Assembly: GCF_964194155.1 (NCBI RefSeq)
Contig: NW_027596273.1
Location: 186,001-250,000, forward strand
From: Cetorhinus maximus
Lineage: Eukaryota
DNA: 64,000 bases
Direction of reading: 5' to 3'
A model generated the notes under the pieces. It saw only the letters and a list, made by a program, of their open reading frames with translations, was not told where the DNA came from and did no database searches. A program made the translations under genes and the position numbers. This document shows positions 9,576-53,279 of this stretch, in pieces. The number at the start of each line of letters is the position of its first letter. Position 1 is the stretch's first letter.

Positions 9576-11010
9576 TTATTTAAATATCAAAAACGCCAGT
9601 GCTCTGGTGACTGACCCTTGAGAGTGGAAACAGTTTCTCCCTAACTGCTCTATCAAACCGCCCGCCGCCGATCCCTTCCTTAGCACAGTAATTTTAAACA
9701 ACACCATGAAAACTCAGTTTAACCTGCTTTGCTCTAAAGAAAACGATCCCGGCCTTTATAGTCTCTACAAAACTGAATGTGTTCACCCCTGAACATGGTG
9801 CAAGGCGGAACATTGTGACGAGATTTTGGAAAATGTTGTTCATTGGCAGGTGGAAAAATGGAGGAGGAACCAAAACAGGAAACCCAGTCTCCAGTTCTGT
9901 GAATATTTACAAACTCTTTAGGAAACGGAATCAGGGGAGAATGAAGGGTGAGCTGTCCGACTGACCAAGGCCTATCTGGAATGTTAAGCCATTCTGTCAT
10001 GCAGCAGCACTCTGGGTCTCTGTTTCGGAGAAATAGAATTCAGCTGGTATTGTCAGGAATGCTGCAGACAGACTCATATAACAATGTAATCATAAAACGG
10101 CAAAGCACCATGTATCTATTCAATGGCATAAGGGGCCCTTCCATAATCTTGTCCCGTTCAGCTTTTTATAAGAGCAAACGAATTAATCTCAGTTTCCATC
10201 CCTCTTTTAGTAAACCTGTTATTATTCTGAATATCAATTAATTGCACAATTCCCTTTTGAAAAAGGAGATTCTGCATATTCCATGCCTAGTTTACCTTAA
10301 GTAACACTGTTTCTCTCACCCAATGCCATGAAGATTTAGACTAGTGCTTCTTACATAGTTATGCATATGAACATTATTTACTTTTTCTATTGATTTCATA
10401 TCGAATTGACAAAAGTGCTCATTTTTCTGATCAAACACCTCATTATTTCTGAGTTGATTTACAGAATCTAATTACATTTGCTCCACAAGGGTGGAGCTAA
10501 TCAAGGGTGTTATATCACAGTGGGAAATCAATGTTACAGTTCAACAGAGCCCTGCCAAGATCAAAAGCTGGCATAGTTTGTTTCTTTCATTTGGTTTAAA
10601 ATGCATTTGTTCTGGGAAGGCAATCTTACAGAATACATATTTGTTTAGGAAAAAGTGTTGATCTGCCAGAATGTTTGGAGGATTCCAATGGTTAGACTGA
10701 GAGGTCATGTCACTTGTTACAGGAAGACAACTCTTGGTTTCCGCCTGGTGCCTCAGTTTGTTTGAATTTCAAACTACAGAATGTCTTAGGCAGCAATGCT
10801 TTCTGCTCAATCATTATGAACACACTTCTCCTCAGCAGAAGAAATTAAACAAACTTTTCTCAGCAATTCTTTACCTTATTTAACATTCAGTATTAATGTA
10901 TTTGATATTGATGCCCTTGGTTAACTTGAGGCTCTCTGAAATAGACAACATCGAATTGCAAACTTGACTGGCAAGCAAAAGAATGCCAGGCACCAGGTAA
11001 TGCATTTGAT

Positions 11011-12233
11011 ATGGGTCTGTTAGACAAAGGAAAGCCAATGGATGTTATCTACTTGGACTTCCAGAAGGCCTTTGACAAGGTGCCGCACAGGAGGCTGCTT
11101 AGTAAGATAAGAGCCCATGGTGTTAGTGGCAAGGTACTAGCATGGATAGAAGATTGGCTGTCTGGCAGGAGGCAGAGAGTGGGGATAAGGGGGTCCTTCT
11201 CAGGATGGTGGCCGGTGACTAGTGGAGTTCCGCAGGGGTCAGTGTTGGGACCACAACTTTTCACTTTATACATTAATGATCTAGATGAAGGAACTGAGGG
11301 CATCCTGGCTAAGTTTGCAGATGATACAAAGATAGGTGGAGGGACACGTAGTATTGAGGAGGCGGGGAGGCGGCAGAATGATTTGGACAGGTTAGGAGAA
11401 TGGGCAAAGAAGTGGCAGATGGAATACAACGTGGGGAAGTGTGAGGTCATGCACTTTGGTAGGAAGAATAGAGACATAGACTCTTCTGTAAATGGGGAGA
11501 GGATTCAGAAATCTGGAGTGCAAATGGACTTGGGAGTCCTAGTCCAGGATTCTCTTAAGGTTAACTTGCAGGTTGAGTCGGTAGTTAGGAAGGCAAATGC
11601 AATGTTGGCATTTATTTTTAGAGGACTTGAATATAAAAGCAGGGATGTGCTGCTGAGGCTTTCTAAGGCTCTGGTCAGACCACATTTAGAATATTGTGAG
11701 CAATTTTGAGCCCCGTATCTCAGGAAGGATGTGCTGTCCCTGGAGAGGGTTTAGAGGAGGTTCACGAGAATGAACCCAGGAATGAAAGGCTTAACATATG
11801 AGGAACGTTTGAGGACTCTGGGTCTATACTCGATGGAGTTTAGAAGGATGAGGGGGGATCTGATTGAAACTTACAGAATACTGAAAGGCCTGGATAGAGT
11901 GGGCGTGGGGAAGATGTTTCCATTAGTAGGAGAGACTAGGACCCGAGGGCACAGCCTCAGAGTAAAGGGAAGACCTTTTAGAACAGAGATGAGGAGAAAC
12001 GTCTTTAACCAGAGAGTGGTGAATCTATGGAATTCATTGCCACAGAAGGCTGTGGTGGCCAGGTCATTGAGTGTATTTAAGACCGAGATAAATAGGTTCT
12101 TGATTGGTAAGGGGATCAAAGGTTACGGGGAGAAGGCGGGAGAATAGGGTTGAGAAACTTATCAGCCATGATTGAATGGCGGAGCAGACTCGATGGGCCG
12201 AATGGCCTAATTTCTGCTTCTATGTCTTCTGGT
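11011..12233 (+). mobile_element. CR1 LINE, 5'-truncated (RT C-terminal half plus 3'UTR)
   Basis: YLDFQKAFDKVPH, GVPQGSVLGP, KFADDTK, LVRPHLEYC; stop at 11707 replaces the Trp codon. Confidence 0.95.
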
Positions 12234-35599: not shown

Positions 35600-36560
35600 C
35601 ATATGGGGTCTTGGGCATCAGATATAGAGGCACTGAGTACAAAAACAGGGAAGTGCACCAACAGAGAGTTGTCAGGATCTGGAACTCTCTCCCTGAAACG
35701 ATGCTGGAACCTGATTCTGTGTGTAGACTCCGCCCACTCATCCTATCTACCCTGTCAGTTCCAATTAATATCCCGAAAACTTTGATCAAATCAGGTCTTA
35801 ATCTTCTAAATTCCAGGGATTACAGCCCTCACAGTGAGGTGATGTATTTTAGCAGGAGGGATAGGGAGAGGGAAGATATAATTCATGGCGCAGCTCTAAA
35901 GAGTGTGCAGGGACAGAGGGACCTGGGTGTTCATGGCTTTGATCTCTGAAGGTGACAGAATGTATTACGAGAGTGGTTAGCACAGCAGATTGGATCTTGA
36001 GCTTCATAAGTGGTGGTTTTGAGAGCAAAAACAGGGAAGTTATGCTGAATTTTTATAAAGCTCTGGTTAGGCCACAATTTGAGAATTGCATCCAGTTCTG
36101 GTCACCTCACTTCAGGAAGGATGTGAAGGTCCTTGAGAAGGTGCAGAGGAGATTTACCAGAATGGTTCCTGCAAAGGAGGCTGAGGGGAGATTGATAGAG
36201 GTGTACAAGGTTGTGGCAGGTTTAGATAAGGTGGACAAAGAAAAGCTGTTCTCATCAGCTGATCATACAAGGACTCAAGGACAGAGATTTAAGGTTTTGG
36301 TTAAAAGGTATGGGATATGTGAGGAAGAATATTTTTACACAGTGAGTGGGAATGACCTGGAGCTTACTGCCTACGAAGGGGTGGAAATGGACATGATGAA
36401 TGATTTCAAAAGGAAATTGGACAGAAGCATGAGGGAAATAAACTTGCAAGGATACAGGGATAGAGCAGGGGAAAGGGACTGATTGGATTGCTCTACATAG
36501 CTGGCATGGACTCAATGGGTCTAATGGCCTCCTCTGTGTCATAATGACTCTGTGACTCTT
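35600..36560 (+). mobile_element. CR1 fragments
   Basis: KALVRPQFENCIQFWSPHFRKDV. Confidence 0.85.
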
Positions 36561-36689: not shown

Positions 36690-39076
36690 GACAAAAACAA
36701 AAATAAAAATACCTGGAAAAACTCAGCAGGACTGGCAGCATCTGCGGAGAGGAACACAGTTAACGTTTTGAGTCCGTATGACTCTTCAACAGAACTAAGG
36801 AAAAATAGAAGAGAGGTGAAATATAAGTTGGTTTAAGGGGTGGGAATGGGACAGGTAGAGCTGAATAGAGGGCCACTGATAGGTGGAGATTGCCAAAAGA
36901 TGTCATAGACAAAAGGACAAAGAGGTGTTGACGGTGGTGATATTAGCTAAGAAATGTGCTAATAGGTGACATTAAGGGTAGAAAGCAGGACAAGCAAGGT
37001 ACAGATAGCCCTAGTGGGGGTGGGGTGGGGGGAAGGGATCGAAATAGGCTAAAAAGTAGAGATAAAACAATGGATGGAAATACATTTAAAAATAATGGAA
37101 ATAGGTGGGAAAAGGAAAATCTATATAAATTATTGGAAAAAAGGGGGATTGGAAAGGGGGTGGGGATGGAGGAGAGTGTTCATAATCTTAAGTTGTTGAA
37201 CTCAATATTCAGTCTGGAAGGCTGTAAAGTGCCTAGTCGGAAGAAGAGGTGCTGTTCCTCCAGTTTGCGTTGAGCTTAACTGGAACAATGCAGCAGGCCA
37301 AGGACGGACATGTGGGCATGAGAGCAGGGTGGAGTGTTGAAATGGCAAGCGACAGGGAGGTCTGGGTCATGCTTACAGACAGACCGAAGGTGTTCCGCAA
37401 AGAGGTCACCCAGTCTGTGTTTGGTCTCTCCAATGTAGAGGAAACCGCATTGGGAGCAGCGAATGCACTAGACTAAATTGAGGTAAGTGCAAGTGAAATG
37501 CTGCTTCACTTGAAAGGAGTGCTTGGGCCCTTGGACGGTGAGGAGAGGGGAAGTAAAGGGGCAGGTGTTGCACCTTCTGCGGTTGCATGGGAAGGTGCCG
37601 TGGGAGGGGGTTGAGGTGTAGGGGGTGATGGAGGAGTGGACCAGGGTGTCACAGAGGGAACGATCCCTGCAGAATGCCGCCGGGGGGGTGAAGGGAAGAT
37701 GTGTTTGGTGGTGGCATCATGCTGGAGTTGGCGGAAATGGCGGAGGATGATCCTTTGAATGAGGAGGCTGGTGGGGTGATAAGTGAGGACAAAGGGGACA
37801 CTATCATGGTTCTGGGAGGGAGGAGAAGGCGTGAGGGTGGATGCGCGGGAGATGGGCCGGACACGGTTGAGGGCCCTTTCAACCACCATGGGTGGAAAAC
37901 CTCGGTTAAGGAAGAAGGAAGACATGTCAGAGGAACTGTTTTTGAAAGTGGCATCATCAGAACAGATGCGACGGAGGCAAAGGAACTGAGAGAATAGGAT
38001 GGAGTCCTTATAGGAAGCAGGGTGTCAGGAGCTGTAGTCAAGGTAGCTGTGGGAGTCGGTAGGCTTGTAATGGATATTGGTGGACAGTCTATCACCAGAA
38101 ATTGAGACAGAGAGGTCAAGGAAGGGAAGGGAAGTGTCAGAGATCAACCATGTGAAAATGATAGAGGGGTGGAAATTGGAAGCAAAATTAATAAATTTTT
38201 CCAGGTCCAGACGAGAGCATGAAGCAGCAGCAAAGCAGTCATCGATGTACCAGAGAAAGAGTTGTGGGAGGGGGCCGGAGTAGGACTGGAACAAGGAATG
38301 TTCCACATACCCCATAAAGAGACAGGCATAACTGGGGCCCATGTGGGTACCCATAGCCACACCTTTTATTTGGAGGAAGAGAGAAGAGTTTAAGGAGAAA
38401 TTGTTCAGTGAGGGAACAAGTTCAGCCAGATGGAGGAGAGTAGTGGTGGATGGGGATTGTTCGGGCCTCTGTTCGAGGGAGAAGTGGAGAGCCCTCAGAC
38501 CATCCTGGTGGGGGATGGAGGTGTAGAGGGATTGGACGTCCATGGTGAAGAGGAGGCGGTTGGAGCCAGGGAACTGGAAATTGTTGATATGATGTAGGGT
38601 GTCAGAGGAATCGCGGATGTAGGTGGGAATGGACTGGACAAGGGGAGAGAGAATGCAGTCAAGATAGCAAGAAATGAGTTCCATGGGGCAGGAACAGGCT
38701 GACACGATCGGTCTGCTGGGACAGTCCTGTTTGTGGATTTTGGATAGGAGGTAGAAGCGGGCTGTCCGAGGTTGGGAAACTATGAGGTTGGAAGCTGTGG
38801 AAGGAAGATCTCCAGAGGAGATGAGGTCAGTAACAGTCCTGGAAACAATGGCTTGATGTTCAGTGGTGGGGTCATGGTCCAGGGGGAGGTAGGAGGAAGT
38901 GTCTGCGAGTTGACGCTGAGCCTCTGCGAGGTAGAGTTCAGTGCACCAGACAACAACAGCACCACCCTTGTCAGCAGGTTTGCTGACAACATCAGGGTTG
39001 GACATGAGAGAAGGAGTGCGGCAAGTTCAGAGAAAGACAGGTTAGAGTGGGTGAGAGGAGCAGAGAAATTGAGACG
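36690..39076 (-). mobile_element. Penelope-like element (RT, GIY-YIG endonuclease, 3' pseudo-LTR), frameshifted
   Basis: KPADKGGAVVV, FYLLSKIHK, MDVQSLYTSIP, GVAMG, YIDD; GIY-YIG-type CIRCSQCGFLYIGET near 37420-37470. Confidence 0.92.
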
Positions 39077-48209: not shown

Positions 48210-49125
48210 TCCCTCTCCCCATCTCCTCTATCTTCATCTTCAACAACAAACGTGAGGAGCTCATGGAGCTTCTTTGTCACTAAGATTGAGACAATCCAAT
48301 CAGCTGCCTCTGCTGCTTCCCTCCCATCCACTAGCCCACCGGGACAAACTGTCTCTAAAGTTCCCTCATATCTGAGCCCTGAACTCACATCTTTTTCCAG
48401 TTTTGCTCCTGTCTCCTGTTATGGCCTCTCAGAGCTCATCTTGTCCCTGACCTTTTACTTCTTTGGCCCTATTCTCACTAAGCTGCTGATTATTCATCTT
48501 CCCCACATTAGCTGATACTGTTAGCAGTTCTCTCTCTCTTTTGGTACTGTTTCTCTCACCTTTAAATCCACTGACATCGCCCATCCTAAAAATCAACCTT
48601 TGACCCCCATCATCTTTGCAAACTACCACTCCATCTCAACCGTCCTTTCCTCTCCAAAGTTCCTGCTCTTGGTGTCCCTCAAGGATCTATCCTTGGTCCC
48701 TCCTATTTCTTATCTACAAGCTGCCACTAGGTGACACCATCCAAAAGCACCGTGTTAGTTTTCACATGTACACTGACAATGCCCAGCTCTACCTCAGCAC
48801 CATCCCTCTCCATTCCGCTACTGTAGCTAAATTATCAATCTGCTTATCCGACACCCAGTACTGGATGAGCAGAAATTTCCTTCGGTTAAAAATTGGGAAG
48901 ACCAAAACCATTCGGTCACCACTATAAATACTGTTCCTTAATTACTGAGTCCATCCCGCTCCCTGGGAACTGTCTGAGGTTGAACCACACTGTTCACAAT
49001 CTTGGTTCAGATTTGACCCCAAGATGAGCTTCTGACCACATATCCACACCATCACTAATACCAGATAGTTCAATCTCCATAATGCTACCTGTCTTCACCC
49101 CACCTCATTTACTTGCTGCTGCAAC
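48210..49125 (+). mobile_element. L2 RT fragment
   Basis: FHMYTDNAQLYLS...WMSRNFLRLKIGKTK. Confidence 0.8.
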
Positions 49126-52100
49126 TGTTAGGAAGTAGAGGTAGTTTAAGTAAGATATATTTGTATTTGTGGATGTTAGGAATGAGTTTTAGCTTTATGT
49201 TTAAATTTGTTTTGTATTTCTGTATTTGTGTGTTAAGAAAGGGGGAGCTAGAGTTTCAGTTTCACTTTAAAAGATGCCTGCATTTCAATTAGGTTTCATA
49301 GCTCTTGAAGGGGAGCCAAACACAAGGTAGAAAAAATCTGCTGTTGTCTGCCAAAAGGAGGCCCACATAGAGAGACACAGAGAGACCGAAAGCAGTTTGA
49401 ATTCAGTTGAAGCCAGGTGCCAGGAGCAGCTGGACACAGGAGTGGGAACTGCAGGAGCAAGTTCCAAAAACTGAAGAAGAAAATCAGCAAAACCAAGCAG
49501 TGGAACTGGAAAGGTACCAGAGGGCAGTTAAGTCAAGAACAAGGATAGGAACCTGGAAGTGGAAGCAAGGGGCAGAGAGGAGGGCTCCGAGCTTAAAAGG
49601 GAGAAAGCTGAAGGAAGCAGGCTTAAAGCAAAATAGGCTTGCGAGAAGTAAGAAGATCCAAGGAGACAGCTGGCCTGTAACTCTTTACTCTGGGCACATG
49701 AGCAGCGGTGTTGTGTTGGCACAGCTGAGTTAGAGAGAGAATGCGTGGAAGGAAGCTTGAATGCACGTGGTGATCTGGGGAGAGGAACATCAGATGGAGA
49801 GTTTGAAACCCTGGAGGTGGACCTTTGTGGAAGGTGTCTGAGCGAAAGCATCATTTGGGACAAGATACAAAGAAAGGTCCAAGGAATCCTCAGGAAAGGT
49901 TGCATCAGAAAAGGAAATGGTTGTTAAAACTGTAGCAGTAGTCCAGGTGAAACGTGTGCCCTTAGAACCCACAGGAAAGGGGGGTATGGTTCAGGGTAGT
50001 CCAGAGAATTCTTCTTTGATTACTGCTGAAGGAAGGCAGGCTATTAGAGGTTCTGGATGTTTAGTCTGGAAGAGAGAAGTGTTCCATTACTCCTCCAGCA
50101 AAATAAGTAAATAGTCAAAATTTTTAGAGACACTGGAGCAGATCAGCCATTGATGGTGGCTGATGATACAATTTGTGTTCCAGGAAGTTTTATGAAGGAA
50201 GAAGTATCAATACGAGGTATTAATGGAATTTATTAACCTGTTTCTTTGTGTAAAGTCAACTTGTAAAGTCACTTTGTAAATGGAATTGTTACGGTGGGAA
50301 TTATTCCTAAATCATCTATTGAGGGGGTAGGTTTTGTTCTGGGTAATGATTTGGCTAGTGGAGACAGTGATGTGGTGATAACTGTACTGCAGCAGGCAGC
50401 AGGTAGTTGATCATGCTGATCTTAACAAATTTCAGAAAATTACTATGGCCAGAAATGAAGCAAACATTGAAGGAAAACCTTATTAATGCAGGAAACCAAC
50501 TTTCACGTACAAGAGAAGAGTTGGCTAATGAAAAATGAGAATTAGTGAGAACAATTGAGAATCAGCCATGGAGAGTAGGGCATTTGACGGAGGACTTGAA
50601 ATACCTAAATGATTTATTTGTAGAAGCAAATTTAACAAAGTTCAATCTTCAGTTAAAACTTGATGAGCTTCACGCATCAGAAGTTGTTATGAAGTATCGT
50701 GGAAAATGCCTTCAACAAGAAAAGGAATTGTTGGTAAAACAGAATAATTGGTTGAATGCAGAACTTAAAGCCAAAACTAACGAACGGTTAGAGCTTCATC
50801 AGGAAAAGAATAATGAGGTTCTCGAACTTCAATGCAAACTGGAGGAAATGAAGGAGAAAGTGTGTGGTATGGAGTGTCACCGTTCTGAAGTTGTTCTGTG
50901 AGTAAACATTTATTGCTGAATTGTGGTCCAATTGAGCAAAAAAACTGATCCAAGTAACATTACTGGTGTATCAACTTCAGTAATGGGCTGTGCAGAAAAA
51001 ACTGAAGTGCCTACAGAATTGGAAACTAAGAAGCATCAACAAAAAGGCCTGAAAATGCAAAATTACCCTTTCAGTTCATTCACTAGAGACACTGATTTAC
51101 AGGTGCTTGTCAGTGCTAATATACAAGATACAGAAGTTGGAATTCAGGCAATTCAACAGTTTGCAAATGACCATTCAAAGCCTGCTGAGTGAGCACTGGC
51201 ATGATATGGTTCATGGATTGTGCAAAAGAGTTGAAGAGTTAGAACAAACAATGAAATTCCAAAGGGAGAAAACAATTGATGCTGCTGAAAGAGAAGTGGA
51301 GAAGACCTGTTTAAAATGGGATTGGGAGAAACAAGATCATTAAAAAATTAAAGATTAAACCAAGCAGGAGTAGGAAACCCGTTTGTGTAAACATAAAAGG
51401 CATCTCAACACCATCCATGAAATGATGAAAAGAGGTTTTGATCAAAGAAGAAATGAGATGTTAATGTGCAAAACTGGCATTTTGACTTTGCTAAATCGAA
51501 ATGAGAATTTATCACATGTGAGTTCGGAAAATGAGCTTGAGGATGGAATTGCACCTACAGCTGAGGAAAAGGACGATTTGGCTGTGGCCTTAAATTAAAC
51601 ATTCTTTGCTGAGTTAAAGACTGGGAATAAGAGAAAAAAGAACCACAGGGGTTGAGTTATGATAATGTTATGGTGGACAAATTCTGCCAGTTTTGTTACA
51701 TTTATAGACTTTGTTTTGCTTAAATTTTTGTAATTGTACAACATAACACGTGTAGTTGTGCAAATAGATGGTAGATTTATTAATATAGTATGTAATAAGC
51801 TATTGTTAGAGGTTTATGATGTTAAGTTTGTGTTTGGCGGATGTAAGGCCATTGTAAAAACACATTCACTGTTGTGAAACTTTCTTTCTTTCAAAGGATA
51901 AAGTGTTATGAACTGTAGATAGTTTAAGTAAGTTGTATTTGTATTTGCAGGTGTTTTATTAGTTTTATCTTTAAGTTTAAGTTTGATTTCTATTTCTGTA
52001 TTTGTGTGTTAAGAAAGGGTGGAGCTTGAGTTTCAGTTTCACTTTAAAAGATGCCTGCATTTTAATTAGGTTTTACGACTCTTGAAGGGGAGTTAAACAA

Positions 52101-53180
52101 ACACAAGGTAGAAAAAACTGTGCTGTTGTCTAGCAACAGGGGGCTCAGACAGAGAGACACGGAGAAATTGAAAGCAGTTTGAGTTCAGTTTGAGTCAGGT
52201 GACGGGAGAAGCTGGACACAGGAGGTGGAAAACTCAAGAGCAGGTTCCAAAAACTAAAGAAGAAAGCCCCAAAAACCAGGGAGTGGAACAGGAAAGGTCC
52301 CAAGAGGATAGTTAAGTCTAAGGACAAGGACATGAATCTGGAAAAGATCCTGTTCAGTGCAAGTGAAAGCAAGGAGCAGGAAGGAAGACTCCAAGCTAAA
52401 AGGGGAGAAAGCTGCAGGAAGCAGACTTAAAGCAAAATAGGCTTGCAAGAAGACAGACGATCCAAGTAGACAGTTGAATGTCTGTAACTCTTCACCATGG
52501 CATGTGAAGCAGTGGTGTTCTGTTGGCATTGCTGAACCAGAGAGAGAGTGTGTGGAAGAAGGCTTGAATGCACGTGGTGATCCAGGGGATAGGGACATCA
52601 GATGGAGAGTTTGAAACCCTGGAGGTGGACCCTTGTGGATGGCATCTGAGAAAACGTGTCATTTGGGAGAAGATTCCATGCAGGTTTCTTGAGAGTGGAG
52701 ATTGTAAACCCTCATGTCAAAGATTGGGTTCATTGAGACCGGTTGGCTCATGGTGTGATAAGTGTCTGGGGAAGGGGGATTTGATGAAAGATCCATTGCA
52801 TCTGTTTGGGGTGGCATCTGTCACTTGGTTTCAGAGTGTGGTGTGTCTGACCACAAGTTGCCTATTGGTTTACATGGAATGTGTACTAACTGTGAACATT
52901 ACAGTATAAGATAGCTTTTGTTACTTGTGTCATCCTTACAAATCTGTATATATCTGTAAATATATAGTTGTGGGTGAAGGAGTATTTTAATATTGTTAAT
53001 CTTTTCTTGTTTAATAAATGCTTTATTCTTTTATTCAAAGTTCATCAGCTGACTCCTGTGACTCAGTTCAATCGCTGCCCTCCTCGTTTCTAAACAAAAA
53101 ATAAAAGTTAGGATCTATCAAGACGTGTTCCACCCTAATATATGACTTGTCCAGTAGTAACATCAGCTGGGACCATAATA
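49126..53180 (+). mobile_element. non-autonomous Gypsy-type LTR element carrying a captured TPR fragment
   Basis: LTRs 49126-about 49866 (3'-deleted) and 51904-53180; purine tract aaaggataaag before the 3' LTR; protease RDTG...LGND at 50126-50350. Confidence 0.85.
50375..50862 (+). pseudogene. TPR: processed fragment of nucleoprotein TPR N-terminal coiled coil
   Basis: LTEDLKYLN...[44 protein letters not shown]...[14 protein letters not shown] matches recalled vertebrate TPR without gaps. Confidence 0.88.
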
Positions 53181-53279
53181 TAACTCAATTTCTCTCTCCA
53201 TATAAGCTGGGCCTGCTGAGTATTTGCAGAATTTTCTGTTTTAATTCAGATTCCCAGCATTAACTGAATTTTGCTGTAA

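Follow-up and report, generated by a model that had tools for sequence, protein, structure and literature searches.

A spliced TPR fragment fused in frame behind Gag and protease in a pol-less family of Gypsy LTR elements in Cetorhinus maximus

Gag-onc retroviruses, the maize element Bs1 and TPR-MET are the familiar cases in which a host sequence has been fused in frame and replication genes have been given up for it, with helper dependence and the N-terminal coiled coil of TPR as a fusion partner among their features. Compared with these, the host part of the shark family described here is a structural rod, and neither env nor a kinase or signalling domain was seen. In the chimeras that arise by LTR-mediated retroposition, as described in a paper that also mentions Bs1 (Tan et al. 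2016, PMC5131818), sequence from a host mRNA takes the place of some of the internal ORF, and the switch points show microhomology; such products may be non-autonomous elements and may combine 2 parental genes. The shark family resembles them in carrying mRNA between LTRs with switch-point microhomology, but unlike those chimeras, the shark capture founded several subfamilies and hundreds of copies, kept the polyprotein frame and moved between unrelated backbones.

Among crocodilian ERVs, CrocERV29 has captured KIT-ligand and CrocERV31 nectin3, with 6 to 9 copies described (PMC4299795). Both these and the shark family are LTR lineages of long standing in vertebrate germ lines, carry a captured host mRNA and show signs of purifying selection, but the crocodilian elements retain pol and near-complete host ORFs, whereas the shark family is of Gypsy type, has lost pol, and carries a weakly constrained fragment fused in the Gag-protease frame. 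With Gmr1-like Gypsy elements (PMC8220671 and PMC3424704), the shark family shares a SCAN-type Gag, and its pol-bearing relatives share an integrase directly behind the protease; unlike them, the family itself is a non-autonomous derivative without integrase (IN), reverse transcriptase (RT) and RNase H (RH). No description of this element was found in the literature searched, which excluded Repbase/Dfam and most subscription journals. Within that literature the mechanism class, LTR-mediated retroposition, is known, and no case of this scale or of such serial reuse of coiled coils was found.

The window, a stretch of 64,000 nucleotides, contains at positions 49126 to 53180 a decayed element of the Gmr1-like Gypsy LTR type, all features of which lie on the forward strand. 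A reading made from the letters alone, hereafter the sequence-only reading, had proposed 2 related LTRs, and these are indeed present. Only the first ~740 bp of the 5′ LTR remain (49126 to 49866, beginning with TG), whereas the 3′ LTR is complete (51904 to 53180, ~1277 bp) and preceded by a short purine run. The pair differs by 113 substitutions over 738 aligned columns, or 15.3%, and is flanked by a 4-bp target-site duplication (49122 to 49125 and 53181 to 53184) with one mismatch between its copies; the flanks are identical in the paralogue L120. Judged against loci L109, L116 and L117, a deletion of ~1.9 to 2.2 kb at 49866 to 49881 has left almost nothing of gag, with SCAN and CCHC both gone, and has also removed the primer-binding site and what followed of the 5′ LTR; this deletion is common to the window copy and its paralogues in the surrounding zinc-finger gene (ZNF) cluster.

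The gag-protease spacer and aspartic protease follow at 49881 to 50356. A single frame, broken by stops at 50234 and 50264 and by the loss of 1 nt near 50115, holds both RDTG (50126) and GND (50342). The motifs, the single frame and the stops agree with the protease called from the letters. The degraded protease of the window copy had no match in a Pfam search, and the RVP match in the protease of a sister copy (E = 0.0013) fell short of the Pfam cut-off. Next come the end of the TPR 5′ UTR and the first ~25 codons (50357 to 50451, with the host start-codon position near 50372), the site of a 201-nt in-frame TPR deletion typical of the family together with a private deletion of ~17 nt (50452 to 50469), and TPR CDS 310 to 713, that is, codons 104 to 238 from host exons 3 to 7 (50470 to 50873). 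The last of these stretches contains a single stop, at the CpG-prone position 50536. A tail of ~260 codons in the family frame, here called X, extends from 50874 to 51655, contains several private frameshifts and ends in a basic cluster.

Breaks in the reading frame of this copy are mostly private, and it is dead, as had been supposed. The 7-bp tandem duplication at 50389 to 50402, removed by the sequence-only reading in aligning TPR, is real but confined to the window copy and 5 near-identical segmental duplicates; it is absent from the other 52 type-A copies (the type of the window) and from the older paralogues L007 to L009, and is not a feature of the family. Likewise, the internal deletion and the frameshift beside it both exist, but the former belongs to the family and is in frame, whereas the latter is a separate private lesion.

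The surroundings of the element, in a genome of 4.0 Gb, are a cluster of C2H2 zinc-finger genes, and many 84-bp zinc-finger arrays were noted on both strands between 13985 and 48044. It has been duplicated together with this cluster to at least 9 further places (L001 to L010), several of them 99% to 100% identical, which reflects either recent duplication or redundancy in the assembly. The ~2-kb deletion also recurs in the near-identical neighbours C24, C215, C1272 and C1433, and the window copy and these neighbours have probably multiplied through segmental duplication of the ZNF cluster. Elsewhere in the window, a 66-bp tandem repeat spans 1303 to 1858 (8.4 copies), and long stop-free frames occur at 10945 to 11706, at 35943 to 36479 on the forward strand and at 37509 to 39026 on the reverse strand. 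These frames resemble remnants of CR1-type LINE and Penelope-type reverse transcriptases.

The identification of the captured segment as TPR, also first made from the letters, was upheld. Pfam PF25481 matched the TPR-like stretch of the window with an E-value of 2e-20, the top protein match was the whale-shark TPR (64%; 62 matches), and a sister copy gave weak PDB matches to N-terminal structures of human TPR, including 5TO6. The host TPR gene was located at G000:C18, and 13 exons with GT-AG ends were mapped. Compared with the host gene, the window is 79% identical at the nucleotide level over CDS 18 to 73 and 75% identical, without gaps, over CDS 310 to 713. The latter segment crosses 4 host exon junctions, at CDS 333, 430, 534 and 699 (positions 50493, 50590, 50694 and 50859), and is therefore derived from a spliced mRNA, in line with the capture that the sequence-only reading had postulated. 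Longer copies of the family cross further junctions of the host gene.

The fragment is present in many copies and has neither poly-A nor a target-site duplication of its own, which speaks against a later insertion of a single copy; no poly-A was found at the 3′ junctions of 9 copies. The captured sequence starts within the TPR 5′ UTR, at a microhomology of ~5 to 7 nt with the protease end of pol-bearing relatives, as judged by eye. Intron-free, placed between 2 LTRs, substituted for part of the internal ORF and joined at a switch-point microhomology, with no poly-A or own target-site duplication, the segment has the properties of an LTR-mediated retrocopy.

The family is large. All 40 scored loci from a DNA search matched, among 1,169 candidates, and a 22-mer from the window, searched with up to 2 mismatches, was found at 481 genomic places (control, 0), a count that mixes subfamilies since the 22-mer matches 25 of 25 type-A loci and 13 of 54 other loci. 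In loci selected by gag-protease DNA alone, TPR was located directly behind the protease in 30 of 30, and an integrase in none. Complete type-A copies measure 5.9 to 6.3 kb from LTR to LTR, encode a SCAN and CCHC Gag and contain a primer-site-like sequence behind the 5′ LTR, presumably corresponding to tRNA-Pro. In 8 dispersed copies, the two LTRs of a pair have diverged by 9% to 13%, which indicates that the burst is old. Contigs from 3 other organisms contain sequence that matches the family's protease, TPR and X at 85% identity or more, a filter that the host TPR, at 75%, would be expected to fail. Annotated proteins with a protease-TPR fusion were not found at E 1e-5 among 598 candidates of 164 to 524 amino acids, a search that carries little weight. 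Excluded from the comparisons were L120 as a paralogue of the window copy, L163, L189 and L192 as duplicates, and, for the gag/protease test, L112. It was also noted that TPR-bearing elements of differing subfamilies adjoin or nest within a few kb of each other at L053, L070, L079, L086 and L112.

An alignment of 19 type-A copies spans gag, protease, TPR and the whole of X in 2,721 columns, or ~906 codons. In the frame set by the host TPR, no stop in this alignment is shared by half or more of the copies, while the other 2 frames contain dozens. Of the individual copies, 35 of 50 keep the frame between protease and TPR and 32 of 47 keep it between TPR and X. In one natural copy the frame stays open for 299 codons, starting at the zinc knuckle and reaching into TPR, and in another an open stretch of 240 codons leads from TPR to X. 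The in-frame Gag-protease-TPR fusion that had been proposed thus holds at the level of the family, in which the frame is continuous across 3 unrelated junctions and continues for ~260 codons beyond TPR into an unrelated tail, while the broken frame of the window copy results mostly from private lesions.

Tail X itself has few relatives. Its DNA gave 150 matches among 150 scored genomic loci, and phmmer returned 3 protein matches, namely 2 hypothetical proteins of Scyliorhinus torazame (P0063 and P0064) and a third that is probably due to chance. Pfam gave a single weak match below the cut-off, the ESM Atlas gave no usable match, and no counterpart was seen in the pol-bearing relatives apart from the end that precedes the LTR. 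A single-sequence structure model of X had a pLDDT below 50.

Consistent with the loss of RT, RNase H and integrase that the sequence-only reading had noted, the TPR family encodes none of these, and TPR stands where relatives have an integrase. In sister copies, Pfam identified SCAN (4e-10 and 4e-12) and zf-CCHC (4e-5). The spacer and protease of the window are ~71% identical at the nucleotide level to 2 pol-bearing relatives, L193 and L194. Furthermore, 13 of 30 loci selected with the protease-linker of subfamily B2 lacked TPR, and 11 of these show, by eye, integrase motifs straight behind the protease. In L193, the protease is followed by Pfam H2C2 and rve, and the 3′ region is 65% to 80% identical to the type-B tail; RT-like motifs downstream of the integrase in L193 and L194 were seen by eye and gave no match in Pfam. 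An integrase placed straight after the protease fits Gmr1-like elements (PMC8220671). The search for a pol-bearing partner that shares the LTR and gag of type A was negative, and the family is probably mobilized in trans by its pol-bearing relatives.

The history of the capture was traced by comparing 74 fetched loci with the window, and a search with TPR residues 251 to 450 exposed longer versions. The least-deleted copies span TPR CDS -17 to ~1390, and the piece originally captured comprised TPR codons 1 to ~463. Subfamilies B1 and B2 contain nested deletions within this piece, and in B2 the native pol linker is followed by TPR from codon ~56. In type A, CDS 98 to 310 and everything beyond 713 have been lost. 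Type C is a separate Gypsy element with short LTRs (~290 to 400 bp), its own gag, a long coiled coil upstream of TPR and an integrase-like C-terminal tail. In a protein tree of 23 copies, the TPR segments formed a single clade (UFboot 98) that joined the host after the split from the whale shark (94). The single clade and the nested, shared deletions indicate that TPR was captured once and then moved, and the piece was kept through transfers between at least 4 backbones. At TPR codon 148, 38 of 62 copies share the residue of the whale shark, and the host, bird and eel agree on another; this pattern is probably parallel CpG decay.

The upstream coiled coil of type C is derived from a second host gene, UACA, with 74% identity to a named shark UACA. 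In the genome, 150 of 150 scored loci matched, among 10,558 loose candidates, and the host exon is located at G000:C27:11441250 (L122); the host UACA has 94.7% identity to its counterpart in Carcharodon and 76% to 83% identity to those of 5 other sharks. TPR was also present in 8 of 10 loci selected by UACA, and in 17 of 23 copies the join between UACA and TPR keeps the frame. Loci in which a short-LTR Gypsy element carries both are L082, L084, L093 and L123 to L132. The UACA-bearing family may outnumber that of the window.

We judge the chance to be slightly better than even that the TPR piece, where Pol would otherwise stand, is translated as a coiled-coil rod of a generic kind, rather than as a tool directed at the nuclear basket, and that the family is copied by pol-bearing relatives. 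The capture of a UACA coiled coil in the same way makes a generic rod the simplest reading. Spliced host TPR mRNA has supplanted IN, RT and RNase H, its frame continuing that of Gag and protease, and the single capture was followed by nested in-frame trimming and by transfer of the piece to other backbones, one of which also bears the host UACA coiled coil. According to this proposal, the capture and the transfers would have occurred by template switching of reverse transcriptase inside particles. With the long frame, translation of the RNA would extend nearly as far as the 3′ LTR and may thereby avoid the decay triggered by an early stop. A rod on the Gag polyprotein would aid oligomerization and co-assembly with helper Gag-Pol, and such co-assembly, we propose, would favor the packaging of the element's own RNA.

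All 5 shared TPR deletions are multiples of 3: that of 201 nt (16 of 37 copies, with 7 more at 204, 207 or 210), 33 nt (12 of 74, with 43 undeleted), 96 nt (40 of 52), 186 nt (38 of 46) and 51 nt (8 of 9). The same holds for the 4 shared UACA deletions, of 102, 753, 453 and 126 nt. Among private indels, 26 of 141 are in frame, and three 1-nt deletions are each common to 3 copies. Microhomologies in these coiled-coil genes are in frame in 45% to 81% of cases by themselves, and this bias weakens the count of 9 in-frame deletions out of 9, with P ~0.01 at a rate of 0.6 and ~0.04 at 0.7; nor is the heptad phase of the deletions independent of microhomology.

It is possible that only the open frame matters, such that any long stop-free stretch would serve and the TPR segment has no role as a protein; we consider this unlikely, although it is the most serious of the alternatives. 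Large parts of TPR have been deleted repeatedly, and the in-frame junctions, along with the depletion of stops, are the strongest signals in the data. That depletion was measured in 80 copies from changes shared within one subfamily and absent from the host and the other subfamilies, taken as fixed during the mobile life of the elements, with CpG-prone sites removed, a set of 99 non-synonymous changes, 41 synonymous changes and 1 stop. By several tests that are not independent of each other, stops were rarer among shared than among rare changes (1 of 141 vs. 122 of 2353, p = 0.014), radical changes were depleted among the shared ones, which had higher BLOSUM scores (p = 0.017), and the odds ratio of non-synonymous to synonymous changes was borderline at 0.70 (p = 0.077). 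Against a role of the frame alone, changes to proline were avoided (0 of 99 vs. 82 of 1730, p = 0.02) and hydrophobic residues were kept (6 of 99 vs. 225 of 1730, p = 0.04), and both identified captures are coiled coils.

Estimates of omega are divided in the same manner. The net values between subfamilies over CDS 310 to 711 ranged from 0.58 to 0.68 with intervals that include 1, as a mere filler would predict, but TPR, at 0.66, did not differ from the protease, at 0.67, in the same comparison. Copies of types B and C were chosen by protein similarity, which introduces a bias in CDS 750 to 945; the main comparison avoids this stretch and the pooled one includes it. The net omega between C1 and C2 was 1.02. 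Relative to a mutation-type null, the ratio of non-synonymous to synonymous changes was 0.92 overall and 1.25 to 1.41 for type A alone, which thus shows no synonymous excess, under a biased null for which rare changes score 1.2 to 1.4. A test within type A gave 0.26 for CCHC-protease, 0.43 for TPR and 0.51 for X, values that are biased low by recurrent synonymous transitions and informative in their rank order only. The dN/dS of the Gag N-terminus is unreliable owing to the alignment, and a first selection test, with an omega of 0.48, was discarded because singletons over-represent rare mutation types. Overall, frame and helix compatibility have been kept and the exact TPR sequence has not, with weak constraint at the amino acid level.

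The sequence-only reading had suggested that the element exploits or decoys the nuclear basket. The captured coiled coil would then pair with the host TPR and steer unspliced RNA or the particle to the pore, or act as a dominant-negative decoy that interferes with the roles of TPR in export and transposon silencing. All subfamilies keep approximately codons 104 to 238, part of the N-terminal coiled coil of TPR, which homodimerizes, and this coiled coil persisted through the transfers between backbones. The basic cluster at the end of type A is, we presume, NLS-like. In mouse, TPR acts with SPOCD1 in piRNA-directed silencing (PMC7618654).

For human TPR, a recent preprint (bioRxiv 10.64898/2026.10.08.757499) places the ZC3HC1 sites ZBD1 and ZBD2 at residues 29 to 88 and 386 to 481, the NPC-binding domain (NBD) at 450 to 622 and the SPOCD1 site at 775 to 877, and we carried this numbering over to the shark gene by near-colinearity. 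In the copies examined, the NBD and the SPOCD1 site were never captured, and ZBD1 and ZBD2 are cut by shared deletions; the window family retains only TPR codons 1 to ~32 and 104 to 238, a plain stretch of the first coiled coil, which a single-sequence model of a sister copy renders as one helix of 114 residues. With these mapped sites absent or cut, docking at the basket is unlikely. Furthermore, the copies have drifted to 62% to 70% amino acid identity under weak constraint, and UACA, by its database name no basket protein, was captured and amplified likewise. A basket tool, for which support is weak, is in our view quite improbable. Neutral passage or later insertion, with TPR present by chance and no selection on frame or protein, would agree with the within-family omega of 0.8 to 1.0, as in decaying copies, and with the preference of microhomology alone for in-frame deletions, but is very improbable and already largely refuted by the ~906-codon frame over 3 unrelated junctions, the in-frame joining of UACA to TPR, the lack of poly-A and the depletion of stops.

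A wider generalization of the generic rod, namely that Gypsy elements of sharks and rays repeatedly swap Pol for host coiled coils and thereby gain an edge in assembly or in access to the nuclear pore, is doubtful, if conceivable. If true, it would amount to a distinct modular strategy of a parasite of parasites, and pairing with the host TPR could be a further property of the TPR rod. In shark annotations, the copies will resemble pseudogenes of TPR and UACA. In this germ-line case, a captured fragment of a host coding sequence has escaped the usual death of a retrocopy: it has lasted within the translated polyprotein of a retroelement, reached hundreds of sites and been recombined into other families. 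Its many copies preserve this history, and through them one can ask directly whether non-autonomous LTR elements benefit from the proteins that they capture.
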